Shown here: piece after piece, positions 1 to 4,742 of the stretch | How positions within the stretch are numbered: the first letter of the stretch is position 1 | Layout: every line of letters begins with the position of its first letter | IMG/VR virus record: IMGVR_UViG_2740892258_000009 | Length of the DNA: 4,742 bases | From: a virus | Taxonomy: Duplodnaviria; Heunggongvirae; Uroviricota; Caudoviricetes | Direction: 5' to 3' (one strand) | The notes under the pieces: model-generated | The model's input: the letters and a program-made list of their open reading frames with translations, nothing else | Database searches by the model: none | What the model was told of the DNA's origin: nothing | Translations under genes and position numbers: made by a program

Positions 1-325
1 ATGGATTGGGTTATGAGCCCGTCGTCCGGTGATGCTCTTCTCTGTTTTGCAAAAAAGGACGGTACCAGCCGGAAGCAAGGGTACAAACTGGTACCGCCAG
101 GACTACACACAGCATAAAGTTGTGGTGCCGGGTGCCTCCCGGTGCCTGGCGAAGGTTGCACACCAGGCGGGTGGGTATCCACAGAAGGTCGACTGTCAGC
201 CTCAACCTTAACCCGCGTGCGCTGAGCCGCATTCACCACAACGCTAAGGATTCTCTCTGGTTGAAAATACTTAGCTGTTATGTGCCTGCTTTTAGCCACA
301 TCAGGCGAGGTGGACCTGGTTATTC

Positions 326-369
326 CCCAACAACAAGGATTCGGTTAATCTGGATATCCCCAACAACAA
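326..369 (+). repeat. Two direct copies of CCCCAACAACAA, 32 bp apart, 40-80 bp upstream of the 408 start
   Basis: CCCCAACAACAA at 326..337 and 358..369, read directly. Function as a regulator-binding site is inference. Confidence 0.5.
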
Positions 370-407
370 TAAGAGTATTCAATGTGATCGCTGAATTAAC
401 GGCAGCA

Positions 408-899
408 ATGACGGCTATTCGTGAAACAGCCCAGATTGCAAAACTAATGAACGAGGCAAAAACTCAAGCTGAAGTAAATGCGGCTATTGGTGAGCTGAAC
501 TCAAAGCTTGCGTCTATTCAGCGCGAATGCGTGTCTCTCGTTGAACTGGTGGGCTCTTATCAAGAAATAAATGCTTCTCTCAAAGCTAAAATTGCAGAAT
601 TCGAAAACTTTGAGGCTCAGACGGAAGGCTATATCCTTAACCAACTTGAGTCGGGTACTTTTGTATACTCGAAGGAGGTAATCGTGAACGGTGGCAGCAT
701 AACCATGCATCTTTGCCCAAAATGTTTTGGACAAAAGATAGTATCGATACTTCAACCATTCCCGGTTAGCGAAGATGAGCTTTTTCATAAAAGCAGGTGC
801 CTCCACTGTGAAAATAAGTTTCTGATGAATAAAAATCCGGATTACGTATCGCCTCCATCCATTGAGGAGTTGTCCAGAAAACTTAACGGCAATCTGTAG
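408..899 (+). CDS. Hypothetical protein, 163 aa: N-terminal coiled-coil-like helical region plus C-terminal C4 zinc ribbon (CPKC-x24-CLHC)
   Basis: The ORF-track frame 120..899 is protein-like only from the ATG at 408 (MTAIRETAQIAKLMNEAKTQAEV...); the 96 codons upstream are Arg/Ser/Pro-rich junk. An alternative GTG start at 384 follows a weak AAGAG. Heptad-like A/L/I/E/K-rich N-terminus. Stop TAG at 897..899 is followed by a hairpin plus T-run terminator. Confidence 0.6.
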   Translation: MTAIRETAQIAKLMNEAKTQAEVNAAIGELNSKLASIQRECVSLVELVGSYQEINASLKAKIAEFENFEAQTEGYILNQLESGTFVYSKEVIVNGGSITMHLCPKCFGQKIVSILQPFPVSEDELFHKSRCLHCENKFLMNKNPDYVSPPSIEELSRKLNGNL

Positions 900-938
900 A
901 TTACTACTGTTGTGGATATCCAGATTGTTAAAGAGCTA

Positions 939-961
939 AGCGTCCTGTAGGGCGCTTTTTT
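939..961 (+). terminator. Rho-independent terminator of the 408..899 gene
   Basis: Stem AGCGTCC (939..945), loop TGTA, stem GGGCGCT (950..956, one G-U pair), then a T-run to 961, starting 40 nt after the stop codon. Confidence 0.6.
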
Positions 962-1069
962 GTTGCTAACGAATCATCCGGTCATTCATACGCCACCGGC
1001 GGCTACTTCGTGGGCGTCCTGCCTGTCCGTGATAGCTTACATTATGTTGCTACTTAAAGTAGCAAAAAT

Positions 1070-1098
1070 CAACAACAAAAAGTAGATATTTGTTGTTG
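1070..1098. repeat. 10-bp perfect inverted repeat CAACAACAAA-N9-TTTGTTGTTG; possible operator or weak AU-rich leftward terminator
   Basis: Arms at 1070..1079 and 1089..1098. On the minus-strand RNA the hairpin is followed by AUUUUUG. It shares the CAACAACAA motif with 326..369. Confidence 0.5.
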
Positions 1099-1117
1099 TC
1101 TATGATTTTTCTATAAT
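1090..1117 (+). promoter_or_regulatory. Candidate sigma70 promoter: -35 TTGTTG (1090..1095), 16-bp spacer, consensus -10 TATAAT (1112..1117)
   Basis: Perfect TATAAT hexamer in an AT-rich tract; the -35 is weak (3/6) and overlaps the right arm of the 1070..1098 inverted repeat. There is no sizeable downstream ORF, so any transcript would be a small or antisense RNA. Confidence 0.3.
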
Positions 1118-1256
1118 TAATTGAAAGTTAAATGTTTTTGCTGATTTACTATGCTGTAAACTGAAAATATCGCACGAAGTTGGAGTAGGTATTGAGCATA
1201 GTGAATTATGAGGAGGGAGTTTTTTATGAGATTAATCAGGGAGAAAGAAGAGTAAA

Positions 1257-1276
1257 GCCCGGTTATGCGGCCGGGC
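1257..1276 (-). terminator. Probable Rho-independent terminator of the ParA-like gene (leftward transcript)
   Basis: GC-only 6-bp stem GCCCGG/CCGGGC with an 8-nt loop, 8 nt past the stop at 1284..1286. On the minus-strand RNA it is followed by the U/C-rich UUUACUCUUCUUU (interrupted U-tract). Confidence 0.5.
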
Positions 1277-1283
1277 ACATGCA

Positions 1284-2360
1284 TTACTTTGTAAGTTCTA
1301 GAACTCGTTGAGCCAGCCCTTTAAATTGTTCGTTAAAGGCGTCTCTGCTTGATTTCATTGTATTTAAGGCATGCCCAAATTGCCCTGAATCGCGAATTTG
1401 CTGATCACTGATGGAGAAAACAGGTGTCGCTAGTTGTTGGCTTATTGCGATTAATGAGTTGAAATCGGAAATATGCGCAAGATCATAGGCTGATAAATCT
1501 CCACTGACTGTTGTTTTGTTAATTGCATGTTGCACTTTATCTCGTGGAATTATGCAGGTAATTTTTTCTAGATTTGGCACTAAGATCGAATCAACAGCAT
1601 CACGGATAGCTGCCATCCATTTTTCGAAAGATTTTACAGGTGCTCCTTTACGCGGCCTGTATCTCTGCTGAATCATACCTAGAAACTGCGGTGCATTTTT
1701 AATTGATTGTGAAGAGTTACCATCATTATTTTCTTTAAATAATGCTAATTCTTTGTGCCAGCGAGGTATATTTTTTGAGAGAGAGCGAATTGCTTGCCAG
1801 CAAAAAAAGTCTGGAGCTACAGGTACGATAAAATAGTCACTTGACATGAGAACTACTTCATTTAAACCTCCAACATTAGGGCTGAGATCATAAAGAATGT
1901 AATCAATATTATTCTTCATGGCGATTAGCTGTAATATTTTTGGCAGGTTCCCTGGTATATTTCTTGTAGCAGGAATACCAGCAGCAATTTTTAGAGAAAC
2001 ACTTATCTGTGAATCTAAGTCCGAAACATCTAAATGTCCGGGAAGAAGCAGAAGGTTTTCATGCAGTGTAGGGTGTAATTTTCCCGTTTCTTTTTCAAGG
2101 TATGCTTCAGGTTGTCCGCCATTAATCAAATATTCTACAATAGGTCCAAGAGTTAAGTTATCTCTGCTAGAATAAAAAGAATCTAAACCCTCATCAATCT
2201 TTTCATAGCCAAGAACCATTCCTGTTAGATTACATTGCGAATCAAGGTCAACCATCAATACTTTCTTGCCTTCATCCGCAAGTGCCCATCCAAGATTGAA
2301 GGTTGTTGTGGTTTTACTTACCCCACCTTTATGATTAAAAAAACAAATTGATTTTGTCAT
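1284..2360 (-). CDS. ParA/MinD/Soj-family deviant Walker-A P-loop ATPase with ~110-aa C-terminal extension, 358 aa; orphan (no ParB in window)
   Basis: Walker A at residues 9-18 (NHKGGVSKTT, the KGGxxK[ST] signature), DLDSQ-type A-prime motif (VLMVDLDSQCN) and a hydrophobic-Asp Walker B (IDYILYDLSP). ATG at 2360 with AAAGGA 9 nt upstream. The gene looks AT-richer than the replication gene by eye (not computed). Confidence 0.85.
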   Translation of the reverse strand: MTKSICFFNHKGGVSKTTTTFNLGWALADEGKKVLMVDLDSQCNLTGMVLGYEKIDEGLDSFYSSRDNLTLGPIVEYLINGGQPEAYLEKETGKLHPTLHENLLLLPGHLDVSDLDSQISVSLKIAAGIPATRNIPGNLPKILQLIAMKNNIDYILYDLSPNVGGLNEVVLMSSDYFIVPVAPDFFCWQAIRSLSKNIPRWHKELALFKENNDGNSSQSIKNAPQFLGMIQQRYRPRKGAPVKSFEKWMAAIRDAVDSILVPNLEKITCIIPRDKVQHAINKTTVSGDLSAYDLAHISDFNSLIAISQQLATPVFSISDQQIRDSGQFGHALNTMKSSRDAFNEQFKGLAQRVLELTK

Positions 2361-2461
2361 ATTTCTCTATCCTTTCGACCCCCAGCATATTGTAATTTAC
2401 GCTGGGTGATTATTTTATATTGTTAATGATAATGTTTAATAAAAATAAGAGAGTAAAACAA

Positions 2462-2474
2462 CTATTAGTAATAG
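2462..2474. promoter_or_regulatory. Operator-like 13-bp palindrome CTATTAgTAATAG in the cI/ParA-like spacer
   Basis: Perfect dyad apart from the centre base; same CTATT-N5-TAG architecture as the two 13-mers between cI and cro. Lies ~100 bp upstream of the ParA-like ATG in a 170-bp AT-rich spacer. Confidence 0.3.
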
Positions 2475-2530
2475 CACTTGCTTGATAAATATTATTTTTT
2501 CACCTTTAGTTCTATAGTCTAAACGAAGAA

Positions 2531-3292
2531 CTAAAGCCGGTTGTATTTAATTGATTCGTGTATCAATGCTTTGCCCATAACATAAAGTTGATCTTGGGAC
2601 TTCTCATCAATGTACCATTTCTCATAGGCTGGATTATCCGAAAGAACGGCGAGTTTGTTGCCTTGCATTTGTAGACGTTTAACGTGGAACGTCTTACCAT
2701 AAACGAAAGAGTAAACACCATCAGTTTGGAAGTTGCGAACAGAAATGTCGACAAACAGTCGATCTCCGGAAACTAGAGTAGGGGACATGCTGTCGCCATT
2801 TACAGTCATAACTTTAATATCATCTTGAGAACGATTACCGAAAAGAGAACGGGCATGCTCTGTTGTGAACTCAATGGCGTAGAGCACATCAACATAGTCT
2901 GAAAGCATATAGGTTCCAGGTCCTGCGCTAACGCTAAGATCCAAAACTTCTATCCTGTATACATCGGGTTTTGTTGGATTGGGGATGCTTGCCATTTCCT
3001 TACATCCTTCTCTCTCGCCAACACCATATTCTAAATATGAAGCTGATACCCCCAGAGCCAATGCAAGTTTATTCATGACAGAGGCACGAGGCTTCGCAGC
3101 GCCGATTGTGTATCGCCGCGCCATTTCATATGTAACGCCCACAAGACTTTTGAGTTGGGTGACAGAAATTCCCTTGTTTGTCATTAGCTCGTTTAGTCTC
3201 TTGGCGAAATCTGGATACTTCTGTTCTTCTACCATAGGTAGAAGGTTACTCGCATCACATACGCTAGTCATTTCTATTTTAAGTAGTTGCAT
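2531..3292 (-). CDS. CI-type phage repressor: N-terminal HTH plus C-terminal S24 (LexA-like) autopeptidase
   Basis: HTH segment GISVTQLKSLVGVTYEMARRYTIG; Ala-Gly cleavage dipeptide in LSVSAGPG (residues 123-124 of the 253-aa frame); catalytic Ser in VNGDSMSPT and Lys in FHVKRL, 36 residues apart. Start is uncertain: ATG at 3292, 3271 or 3235 (253, 246 or 234 aa), and the 13-mer at 3274..3286 favours 3271 or 3235. No SD before any of them, consistent with a leaderless transcript as for lambda cI. Confidence 0.9.
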   Translation of the reverse strand: MQLLKIEMTSVCDASNLLPMVEEQKYPDFAKRLNELMTNKGISVTQLKSLVGVTYEMARRYTIGAAKPRASVMNKLALALGVSASYLEYGVGEREGCKEMASIPNPTKPDVYRIEVLDLSVSAGPGTYMLSDYVDVLYAIEFTTEHARSLFGNRSQDDIKVMTVNGDSMSPTLVSGDRLFVDISVRNFQTDGVYSFVYGKTFHVKRLQMQGNKLAVLSDNPAYEKWYIDEKSQDQLYVMGKALIHESIKYNRL

Positions 3293-3333
3293 TCTGCTAT
3301 TTTAAGTAGCATCATCCCTCTGAATTTCAGAGG
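3274..3333. promoter_or_regulatory. Divergent cI/cro control region: two 13-bp direct repeats CTATTTTAAGTAG (3274..3286, 3297..3309) and a 17-bp palindrome CCTCTGAA-t-TTCAGAGG (3317..3333)
   Basis: The 13-mers are 23 bp apart and each is an imperfect dyad (CTA.TT.AA.TAG). Their reverse complements contain TAAAAT, a -10-like hexamer placed to start a leaderless cI message at the 3271 ATG. The 17-bp palindrome overlaps the cro SD (GGAG at 3331..3334). Confidence 0.5.
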
Positions 3334-3341
3334 AGAAAGGT

Positions 3342-3605
3342 ATGTCATCTCAAAACTACACAGAGAAAGCAGTAAAAGCTGCGGGAAAATCTTTATCTGA
3401 AGTAGCCCGTCACTTTGGTTTTAAGTCCACTCAATCCGTCGCTAATTGGGTAATTAACAATCAAGTCCCGTCAGAACGGGTTTTACAACTTTGTGAGTTG
3501 GGAAACTGGTCCGTGACCCCTCATGAACTGCGTCCTGATATTTACCCCAATCCAAATGATGGATTACCTGAGTGCTATTCAAAAGTTAGCGGTTCAGCTG
3601 CGTAA
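3342..3605 (+). CDS. Cro-like early repressor, YdaS-type Cro/CI-family HTH protein, 87 aa
   Basis: Divergent from cI, GGAG SD 7 nt upstream. Motifs typical of YdaS-like prophage Cro proteins (AVKAAGKSLSEVARHFGFKSTQSVANWV... LRPDIYP). Stop TAA at 3603..3605. Confidence 0.85.
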   Translation: MSSQNYTEKAVKAAGKSLSEVARHFGFKSTQSVANWVINNQVPSERVLQLCELGNWSVTPHELRPDIYPNPNDGLPECYSKVSGSAA

Positions 3606-3633
3606 ACGTAACCACAGAAACGAGGAGTTAACC

Positions 3634-4032
3634 GTGGGTAAGCATCACTGGAAAATAGAAAAACAGCCTGAGTGGTACGTGAAAGCTGTCAGAAAAACTA
3701 TCGCAGCGTTGCCGGGGGGTTACGCTGAAGCTGCTGACTGGCTGGACGTAACAGAGAACGCATTATTTAACCGCCTTCGTGCCGATGGCGATCAGATTTT
3801 CCCGCTGGGATGGGCAATGGTTTTACAGCGTGCTGGTGGTACCTCTCAATTTCGAAGCTGCAGGAGCATGCAGCACTGGTCTACAAAATCTTTTGTGTTT
3901 CAGAAAGTAATGACGCCCGCGAGTGTGCAGCTCCGGGCGTCGTGGCGTCGATTGCTTCTGGTTGTGGAGAAACTAACGCATGAACAGTTTAACAACACAC
4001 TACCGTCGCTCGCAACTGTGTGGAGAAACTAA
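3634..4032 (+). CDS. cII-position early regulator, as present truncated by a frameshifting 56-bp tandem duplication (probable pseudogene or altered C-terminus)
   Basis: GTG at 3634 follows a strong SD GAGGAG (3622..3627, 6-nt spacer), in the frame of track ORF 3523..4032. ATGs at 3523 and 3556/3559 overlap cro and lack an SD. The frame stops at TAA 4030..4032 inside copy 2 of the duplication. Assignment to a CII/YdaT-like family rests on gene position plus a loose resemblance and is unverified. Confidence 0.55.
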   Translation: MGKHHWKIEKQPEWYVKAVRKTIAALPGGYAEAADWLDVTENALFNRLRADGDQIFPLGWAMVLQRAGGTSQFRSCRSMQHWSTKSFVFQKVMTPASVQLRASWRRLLLVVEKLTHEQFNNTLPSLATVWRN

Positions 4033-4074
4033 CGCATGAACAGTTTAACAACACACTACCGTCGCTCGCAACTG
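3963..4074 (+). repeat. Perfect 56-bp direct tandem duplication (3963..4018 = 4019..4074)
   Basis: Base-by-base identity of TGTGGAGAAACTAACGCATGAACAGTTTAACAACACACTACCGTCGCTCGCAACTG in two adjacent copies; flanking bases differ. 56 is not a multiple of 3. Confidence 0.95.
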
Positions 4075-4374
4075 ATTGCGCTTCCTGTACCGGGTGGAAA
4101 AGCGAAGGTGGAGTATTGCTATGCAGTAAATGTACCAGGTGACAGGGAAATTGTAACCCACAGCTTTGCTGAGTGGGCTGTGGGTGATTTCAACCGGCAG
4201 AAGGAGACAGTCCTTTGCGACAAGTTAACCGCTGGTTCAAAGATCACTACGGAGTGCCCGTCAGAGTCATTCGTTGGGAACCGGAAACACAACGTGTTAT
4301 CTACCTCCGCGAAGGCTATGAGCATGAGTGCTTCAGCCCGCTCGAACAGTTTCGTCGTAAATTCAGGGAAATAG
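4036..4374 (+). CDS. Hypothetical protein, 112 aa (track ORF); may be an artefact of the frameshift
   Basis: ATG lies inside copy 2 of the duplication with only a distant GGAG (10-nt spacer). Product is Ser-rich with no motif I recognise. Mutually exclusive with the 4215..4394 model. Confidence 0.3.
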
Positions 4375-4394
4375 AGGTCGGTCATGAGCACTAA
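4215..4394 (+). CDS. Alternative small ORF, 59 aa, TTG start; hypothetical
   Basis: Not in the ORF track. AAGGAG at 4201..4206, 8-nt spacer, TTG at 4215. Product (L/M)[58 protein letters not shown] uses preferred CGT/CGC Arg codons; stop TAA 4392..4394 overlaps the replication gene start by 11 nt. Confidence 0.3.
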
Positions 4395-4742
4395 ATTAAC
4401 CGGCTATGTATGGGATGGTTGCGCTGCATCAGGCATGAAATTATCCAGCGTGGCAATTATGGCCCGCCTGGCTGATTTCAGTAATGACGAAGGTGTGTGC
4501 TGGCCATCAATTGAAACCATTGCCCGCCAGATTGGCGCGGGGATGAGTACCGTCAGAACGGCTATCGCACGGCTGGAAGCAGAAGGCTGGTTAACGCGTA
4601 AGGCGCGTCGCCAGGGTAACCGCAATGCGTCGAATGTTTATCAGCTTAACGTTGCGAAGCTTCAGGCAGCGGCATTTTCTCAACTGTCAGATTCTGACCC
4701 GTCAAAATCTGACGCATCAAAATCTGACGCATCAAAATCTGA
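4384..4742 (+). CDS. Phage replication initiation protein (lambda O-like), N-terminal HTH DNA-binding domain; partial, runs past the window end
   Basis: ATG at 4384 with AGAGG SD 6-7 nt upstream; open to the window edge. [70 protein letters not shown] matches the N-terminal HTH pattern of phage O-like initiators. Position after cro and the cII-position gene matches lambdoid order. Confidence 0.8.
   Translation, partial: MSTKLTGYVWDGCAASGMKLSSVAIMARLADFSNDEGVCWPSIETIARQIGAGMSTVRTAIARLEAEGWLTRKARRQGNRNASNVYQLNVAKLQAAAFSQLSDSDPSKSDASKSDASKS
4687..4742 (+). repeat. 15-bp tandem repeats TCAAAATCTGACGCA inside the replication gene; candidate origin iterons
   Basis: One degenerate copy (4687..4701, 11/15 matches), two perfect copies (4702..4716, 4717..4731) and a truncated copy to the window edge. 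In frame, encoding SDSDP-SKSDA-SKSDA-SKSD. The repeat is certain; the iteron role is inference. Confidence 0.8.

Follow-up and report, generated by a model that had tools for sequence, protein, structure and literature searches.

Origin and probable effect of a private 56-bp tandem duplication at the ymfL-ymfM junction of an e14/SfII-type prophage

A 4,742-nucleotide stretch of viral DNA (hereafter the window) carries two adjacent, identical 56-bp copies at the end of a gene that occupies the position of a cII-type regulator. The first-pass annotation of this DNA held that the repeat throws the regulator out of frame, cuts off a zinc-ribbon-like C-terminus and possibly cripples the establishment of lysogeny, and that it is either a recent mutation or an assembly artefact. 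The locus thus raises two questions, namely whether the repeat is what inactivated the regulator and whether it is a genuine mutation at all.

Prophage context and the defect in ymfL

Judged by its gene order and relatives, the window is the immunity and early-right region of an e14/SfII-type lambdoid prophage of E. coli. A ParA-like ATPase gene (1284..2360) and a gene for a cI-like S24/HTH repressor (2531..3292), both on the minus strand, are followed by a YdaS/Cro-like gene (3342..3605), the ymfL pseudogene (plus strand, from the GTG at 3634), ymfM, a DUF4222 ORF (4215..4394, plus strand) that overlaps the 3' half of ymfM in another frame and is mentioned for context only, and an O-like replication gene from 4384. 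Positions 3600..4400 are matched in about half of the 5,426 complete E. coli genomes, where the annotations read ymfL, DUF4222 and helix-turn-helix (O-like) protein. Phage SfII is among the related phages and annotates its ymfL counterpart as cII.

The closest relative fetched was the APEC O18 prophage (NZ_CP006830 4390149..4399101, L001); IHE3034 and PMV-1 also match. The APEC O18 prophage is colinear with the entire window and shares the ParA-like, repressor, cro-like, ymfM, DUF4222 and O-like genes, but it has neither the 56-bp duplication nor a 208-bp deletion that lies upstream of it. The alignment falls into three blocks: window 1..3842 corresponds to L001 402..4243 with a single mismatch at 3840, at the deletion junction; window 3839..4018 corresponds to L001 4448..4627 with 100% identity; and the window from 4019 onward corresponds to L001 from 4572 onward, copy 2 mapping to the same L001 unit as copy 1. 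Besides the two indels, the sequences differ at 3-4 bases (3840, at the deletion junction, 4113, 4128 and 4601).

The intact APEC O18 orthologue of the regulator matches Pfam PF06892 (Phage_CP76, phage 186 CII; 1.2e-13, 51.6 bits against a cut-off of 26), NCBIfam NF041471 (YmfL family; 2.6e-50, 169.9 bits against a cut-off of 90) and PHROG 101 (CII-like activator; 1.2e-70). Intact orthologues resemble phage 186 CII and the PF06892 and NF041471 families over residues 16-156, and the gene also has the position typical of phage 186 CII, between cro and the replication genes and rightward from the immunity region, in the window, L001, L002 and the K-12 e14 prophage (L087). Given these matches and this position, calling it a cII-position regulator was fair. 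The window product differs from the family in that it keeps residues 1-70 only; the family profile is no longer matched, and 3634..4032 gave no Pfam match. By these comparisons the window ymfL is a pseudogene of a member of the YmfL / phage 186 CII-like family. No solved structures were found for YmfL.

The cause of the frameshift lies upstream of the repeat. Relative to APEC O18, L001 4241..4448 is missing at a junction between 3839 and 3840, which takes out YmfL residues 71-139 plus one nucleotide. Because 208 equals 3n+1, ribosomes starting at 3634 would be out of frame from 3843 onward, and the frame followed in the first-pass annotation is not the native ymfL frame 3' of 3839. The predicted pseudogene product (3634..4032, plus strand) has 132 residues, native for 1-70 and out of frame for 71-132, and stops at the TAA at 4030..4032. 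The native 3' remnant (3840..3983, plus strand) still reads ...YLSISKLQEHAALVYKIFCVSESNDARECAAPGVVASIASGCGETNA to its stop in the true frame, where ribosomes from 3634 would not reach it. All nine variable sites in 3845..3896 are at native ymfL third positions, which are second positions of the frame read by the first-pass annotation. A polylinker-like stretch within the remnant, TTCGAAGCTGCAGGAGCATGC (3850..3870), turned out to be native ymfL coding sequence, 100% identical to APEC O18.

Native YmfL has 185 residues and ends in ...ASIASGCGETNA (also ...GCGETNA). Its stop, TGA at 3981..3983, lies within copy 1, 21 bases into the unit, and overlaps the ymfM ATG at 3980 as ATGA. The same overlap was seen in APEC O18, in K-12 e14 and in nine further assemblies encoding an identical YmfM; Klebsiella phage homologues have the same ATGA-type junction and a Citrobacter homologue a similar stop/start overlap. 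Since the native stop is inside copy 1, the duplication would leave YmfL unchanged in an otherwise intact gene. The frameshift ascribed to the duplication is accounted for instead by the deletion at 3839/3840, and any loss in the establishment of lysogeny would likewise be due to the deletion and not to the repeat.

The deletion has an unusual left end. A Chi octamer, GCTGGTGG, occupies 3832..3839 on the plus strand; it is the only one in the window, and the left breakpoint of the deletion coincides with its last base. The right end begins with the TACC of a CTG/TACC motif (the slash marks the break). In 81 relatives Chi is followed by A or C and never by the T of the window, so that the junction, GCTGGTGG/TACCTC, has no more than one base of homology. 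Trimming of a broken end back to Chi is established RecBCD/Chi behaviour; the junction fits an end processed in this way and looks biological rather than assembler-made.

The duplicated unit, ymfM and the ancestral state

Tandem Repeats Finder confirmed the perfect duplication at 3963..4074 (period 56, 2.0 copies, 100% matches, no indels, score 224), and a perfect 56-base match within 4.7 kb cannot arise by chance. The flanks do not extend it: position 3962 is T against G at 4018, and 4019 is T against A at 4075. These differences limit the array to exactly two copies without flanking microhomology. The duplication junction reads ...CGCAACTG/TGTGGAG.... When slipped-strand or short-homology formation was considered, no direct repeat was found at the unit ends, and the ancestral flanks (GGT/TGTGG versus ACTG/ATTGC) share no homology. 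If real, the duplication would be a homology-independent join.

The unit covers the ymfL-stop/ymfM-start junction, with 17 nt 5' of the ymfM ATG (the GGAG and the ymfL end) and 13 ymfM codons. Copy 1 (3963..4018, plus strand) holds the last six native ymfL codons and the stop (TGT GGA GAA ACT AAC GCA TGA), a Shine-Dalgarno-like GGAG at 3966..3969, and the ymfM start at 3980 with 12 further codons. Copy 2 (4019..4074, plus strand) is identical, its GGAG lying at 4022..4025 and its functional-looking ymfM ATG at 4036. Since one gene ends and the next one starts within the unit, the ymfL 3' end is intact in copy 1, and ymfM with its ribosome-binding site is intact in copy 2. The sole new coding element is a 19-codon mini-ORF read from the sequence (3980..4039, plus strand), which starts at the copy-1 ymfM ATG and whose TGA (4037..4039) overlaps the copy-2 ATG. 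The TAA that ends the pseudogene product is one codon before the copy-2 ATG and in the same frame as ymfM.

The ymfM gene (4036..4374, plus strand) is intact and encodes 112 residues of the SfiC cell-division inhibitor family. The protein is identical to that of APEC O18 and identical at 108 of 112 residues to K-12 YmfM, which is annotated as 'cell division inhibitor YmfM'; it matches phrog_1170 at 1.1e-69, and its first 60 residues are identical in 79 of the 80 sequences compared. K-12 YmfM provides the SfiC function and its expression blocks Z-ring formation, while overexpression of ymfL gave no filamentation (bioRxiv 10.1101/2020.11.19.390815). RNA folding set neither the native nor the duplicated junction apart from shuffled controls (z = -0.83 and +0.23), and it thus gave no sign that the repeat masks or frees the ymfM start.

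As a separate observation, a protein search in the ymfM frame found the 5' part of ymfM broken in many ways in public assemblies, by frameshifts, fusions and apparent insertion-sequence ends, with some adapter artefacts.

A single copy of the unit was present in all 82 relatives first fetched, and in all 79 IMG/VR sequences aligned across the region as well as APEC O18, SfII and K-12 e14, which bears out the earlier proposal that the single-copy state is ancestral. For instance, the cryptic prophage e14 of K-12 (b1147/b1148) shares the ymfL-ymfM pair with its ATGA overlap and contains the unit base for base (L087 3306..3361); however, it has one copy and a full-length 185-residue YmfL, compared with two copies and a 208-bp internal deletion of ymfL in the window. 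Full-length YmfL is likewise found 5' of ymfM at each of nine places that encode an identical YmfM. Neither the duplication junction nor the deletion junction was found in 5,426 complete E. coli genomes, IMG/VR, GTDB representatives or JGI metagenomes, and the same four collections gave no intermediate carrying the duplication without the deletion or the reverse. Exact-protein look-ups had no record of the rearrangement-specific products of 132, 169 and 57 residues. By these searches both rearrangements are private to the source of the window. No related intact prophage with the two-copy arrangement turned up among the relatives and collections searched, and the earlier alternative of a recent event or an assembly artefact stands for what is a private allele.

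The putative zinc-ribbon frame

As a description of open reading frames, the first-pass annotation was mechanically correct. The ORF at 3523..4032, with the GTG at 3634 in frame, ends in ...LATVWRN at the TAA at 4030..4032; when one copy is removed in silico, the same frame runs on into the 25-residue ending with the CxxC-x11-CxxC pattern; and a 40-codon GTG ORF encodes this tail at 4020..4142 on the plus strand. From these facts it was proposed that an ancestral full-length regulator with a C-terminal zinc ribbon had been truncated by the duplication, leaving the tail orphaned. The occasional annotation of a 58-residue ORF in this frame as 'hypothetical protein' (P0001, P0002) also speaks for the proposal. 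However, the 185-residue YmfL of intact relatives ends before the ribbon and in another frame. In single-copy relatives the ribbon frame is a 91-codon ORF that crosses the 3' end of ymfL and the 5' end of ymfM in the +1 frame, and the 40-codon ORF is an alternative frame over the 5' part of ymfM rather than a gene. Neither the 40-residue nor the 91-residue version matches any family in Pfam, NCBIfam or PHROGs. When the ribbon-frame peptide was compared with 5.8 billion proteins, just 20 matched, a few of them 'hypothetical' calls of 56-68 residues and most of them deletion fusions.

The pattern of variation also argues against a coding function. Codon phases were compared among 80 sequences (37 distinct), namely the window minus one copy, 77 IMG/VR relatives, APEC O18 and SfII. 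Within 4075..4142, which covers the ribbon tail, all six variable sites are ymfM third positions and ribbon first positions (p = 1.4e-3), and none falls at a ribbon third position, contrary to purifying selection in the ribbon frame. Over 4075..4214, nine of ten variable sites are at ymfM third positions (p = 3.6e-4). Every polymorphism in the ribbon tail is synonymous in ymfM and non-synonymous or nonsense in the ribbon frame, which occurs in seven variants among the 80 sequences; a premature stop removes the second CxxC in nine loci and a Cys-to-Gly change is found in one. The four cysteines are not conserved among more distant homologues either: in Klebsiella, Citrobacter and Pantoea phages, whose homologues retain the N-terminal domain of YmfM with 35-65% identity, the ribbon frame lacks CxxC...CxxC. 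The truncation of a zinc-ribbon tail is refuted by these comparisons, and a regulator of that ancestral form is barely credible. Two cautions follow from the case: a frameshift due to an upstream indel can be wrongly ascribed to a repeat further downstream, and an alternative frame of a real gene can contain a CxxC...CxxC pattern that mimics an orphaned domain.

Origin of the duplication and recurrent breakage nearby

On balance, the duplication is probably recent and essentially neutral, an error of replication or repair in a prophage undergoing decay, and not the lesion that inactivated the regulator. Compared with its closest relatives, the window has two private structural changes, which lie 120 bp apart. 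The 208-bp deletion makes ymfL a pseudogene irrespective of the repeat, and the duplication would be a later or independent event, close to neutral. In the double mutant, the frameshifted ymfL' frame runs into copy 2 in phase with ymfM and stops at the native TAA 3 nt before the ATG, which again places ymfM right behind a terminating ribosome, much like at the native ATGA overlap. Against neutrality, it is unusual for independent neutral events that both private rearrangements fall within 120 bp when the rest of the sequence shows 3-4 base differences from its relative.

This same proximity would be easier to explain if the first of the two rare events had selected for the second. With the deletion alone, ymfL' ribosomes would cross the ymfM start in the +1 frame and stop 105 nt inside the gene (TGA at 4140..4142), which would uncouple or occlude ymfM, leave the downstream RNA untranslated and risk polarity on the replication genes. 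A duplication of 56 bp (3n+2) could then have been selected for restoring termination-reinitiation coupling to ymfM. The frame arithmetic is directly readable from the sequence, and the overlap of the CII-like gene stop with the ymfM start is conserved in E. coli, Klebsiella and Citrobacter phages, suggesting that coupling matters. On the other hand, one in three junction-spanning duplications would produce this frame by chance, ymfM has its own GGAG, a repressed prophage offers little opportunity for selection on the expression of ymfM or O, and the deletion-only intermediate is missing from all four collections searched. We regard a compensatory origin as distinctly improbable.

Alternatively, two contig ends or graph paths that overlap by 56 bases may have been joined end to end without merging, giving a false perfect head-to-tail repeat. 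Exactly 2.0 copies at 100% identity without flanking microhomology fit such an error too, and the junction was found nowhere else in the collections searched, not even in near-identical prophages. At k = 57 the k-1 overlap of a de Bruijn assembly comes to 56 bases, and the window ends within a 15-bp tandem repeat as detected by Tandem Repeats Finder, a frequent ending for short-read contigs. However, junction k-mers are not normally invented by de Bruijn assemblers, and other assemblies, including a conservative third-party (TPA) one, carry comparable private duplications here. The nearby deletion, moreover, adjoins the sole Chi site of the window, and because such a junction is hard to attribute to an assembler, the locus appears to have been genuinely rearranged in its source. 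An artefact is accordingly somewhat unlikely, though it deserves to be taken seriously. Over the neutral and compensatory readings together, a real mutation is likely; we infer that the duplication is genuine, not introduced during assembly, and that ymfM expression is little affected by it.

The other duplications come from two unrelated draft assemblies, FZKA01000037 (L088, 124-bp unit) and DAAZOZ010000002 (L089, 45-bp unit), each with its own private array in the same 180 bp. As in the window, these are perfect or near-perfect two-copy arrays at the ymfL end and ymfM start, and the 124-bp array begins at the same base (TGTGGAG...) as the window unit; they differ from it in unit length and right end. 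The 45-bp unit lies between the direct repeats TGTACCGGGTGG and TGTACCAGGTG (TGTACC(G/A)GGTG), a classical slippage context, whereas the window unit has no flanking homology. Both junctions are absent from the complete E. coli genomes. L088 has one extra G at its junction, and genome FCI54 naturally reads GGTGGTGTGGAG there. A common break site for the window and L088 repeats is not claimed, though their Tandem Repeats Finder registers coincide.

Deletions with a recurrent left end were also found in this region. The motif CTGTACC at 4085..4091 (plus strand), 11 nt 3' of copy 2, recurs as the left end of deletions elsewhere among public E. coli assemblies. Of the 20 ribbon-frame proteins, nine run through ...LATDCASC into internal parts of quite different phage proteins (RusA, Q, DUF968, PerC, the O C-terminus, tail protein L, terminase and tail assembly protein), and these fusions are, by their sequences, independent deletions of very different sizes with one common left end. 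The nine left ends lie within about 9 nt, six of them at ...CTTCCTGTA/ and one at ...CTTCCTG/. The DNA of four fusions is colinear with the window up to 4089 (three, at ...CTTCCTGTA/) or 4087 (one), and a fifth fusion locus, from IMG/VR, repeats the RusA case. The left flank at the ymfM deletion end points reads ...CAACTGATTGCGCTTCC. CTGTACC occurs twice in the 8,953-bp APEC O18 locus, the other occurrence being the right end of the 208-bp deletion of the window (CTG/TACC).

A site-preferring break at CTG^TA^CC in the ymfL-ymfM region of e14-like prophages could in principle underlie both the rearrangements of the window and the deletions of the other assemblies. One end may have been left intact and the other resected by RecBCD, back to Chi in the case of the window, and the 56-bp duplication may be another repair product of the same fragile zone. 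The pattern is like that of a staggered break, but as the motif was defined after the fact, we consider such a site doubtful. Several causes were considered and set aside because none fits all facts: a GTAC-specific restriction enzyme, gyrase or topoisomerase sites, a gix/pix-like invertase half-site (TTCCTGTA...), a G-rich stalling motif and IS-mediated adjacent deletion.

As a private allele at a well-known gene junction of a decaying prophage, the ymfL-ymfM duplication matters little alone; two by-products, the deletion junction exactly at Chi and the recurrent CTGTACC end point inside the SOS-inducible ymfM, are possibly worth follow-up. In IMG/VR, the pattern ...CTTCCTGTA followed by a base other than C comprised one SNP and one true deletion.

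Origin of the ymfL frameshift

The reading frame of ymfL, which encodes a phage 186 CII-like regulator, is disrupted by a 208-bp deletion in the gene interior and not, as the first-pass annotation had proposed, by the perfect 56-bp tandem duplication downstream. Relative to the APEC O18 prophage, the closest relative that we retrieved, the deletion junction lies at 3839/3840 (region 3832..3843). Its left end coincides with the final base of the window's sole Chi octamer, GCTGGTGG; the right end begins with the TACC of CTG/TACC. The base that follows Chi is A or C in 81 relatives and T in none of them, so the homology at the junction amounts to at most 1 nt.

Within the 9-kb locus of APEC O18, the heptamer CTGTACC is found at just two positions. 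One is the right end of the 208-bp deletion itself; the other, which corresponds to 4085..4091 of the window, is where prophages in other E. coli assemblies (loci L090-L093 and L095) repeatedly have the left end of a deletion. These independent deletions begin directly after ...CTTCCTGTA or ...CTTCCTG, where the remaining sequence is fused to RusA, Q, the C-terminus of O, tail L and others.

Conservation and rearrangement around the ymfL/ymfM boundary

The 56-bp unit (3963..4018), which spans the ymfL stop and the ymfM start, is unusually conserved, with a single variable site in its 56 nt among 37 distinct sequences; the preceding 120 nt (3843..3962) contain 21 variable sites in the same sequences. 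In several phages (mEp460, SfV, cdtI, 2H10 and Ayreon), homology to the window is lost ~14 nt into ymfM, a position that looks like a natural mosaic boundary. The dominant stem of the predicted native RNA fold is a GC-rich hairpin at 3911..3942 (GACGCCCG ... CGGGCGTC), located within the ymfL 3' end; taken as a whole, this fold was no better than shuffled controls.

Two further private perfect tandem duplications were found in the stretch covering the ymfL end and the ymfM start, namely a 124-bp unit in locus L088 (2395..2641, FZKA01000037) and a 45-bp unit in locus L089 (3100..3200, DAAZOZ010000002). The 124-bp array starts at the same base as the 56-bp unit of the window. Neither the L088 nor the L089 duplication was found in complete E. 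coli genomes. Shortened YmfM N-termini were also observed in public assemblies (proteins P0021, P0029, P0036 and P0024); some of these run into what resembles an IS3-family inverted-repeat end (...EPPRVSWRVFYL, ...EPPRESWRLNFLRKR), and one continues into a Nextera adapter (LSLIHI). Many kinds of lesions strike ymfM, and some of the fusions are artefacts.

Overlapping frames of ymfM and DUF4222

The 3' half of ymfM (4036..4374) is overlapped in another frame by a DUF4222 ORF (4215..4394). RefSeq annotates DUF4222 in APEC O18 but ymfM in K-12, and across the overlap phages of Klebsiella and Pantoea conserve the DUF4222 frame better than the ymfM frame. The YmfM homologue of Citrobacter phiNP is just ~65 aa long and is not followed by DUF4222, and PHROG 20047 is a 63-aa version comprising only the N-terminal part of YmfM. 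The functional domain of YmfM may be limited to the first ~60 residues.

Other genes of the window

A 172-aa ORF (381..899), for which the APEC O18 annotation gives no more than "hypothetical", combines a coiled-coil-like N-terminal part with a C-terminal CPKC...CLHC motif. This CxxC pair belongs to a real annotated gene, whereas that of the zinc-ribbon-like tail suggested by the first-pass annotation, which lies in an alternative frame of ymfM, does not. Next to the repressor gene, the minus strand encodes a 358-aa ParA/AAA_31 ATPase (1284..2360) within a low-GC island (1050..2700; GC of 0.31-0.39 versus ~0.50 elsewhere). The ATPase matches the PADLOC candidate PDC-M28B weakly and at the P-loop level only; its gene, which APEC O18 also carries, may be a moron or a defence gene. 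Finally, the O-like replication gene contains an iteron-like 15-bp tandem repeat (TCTGACCCGTCAAAA, 4693..4742) that encodes SDPSK/SDASK repeats; relatives have 4.3 copies, compared with 3.3 in the window, where the array reaches the window end.
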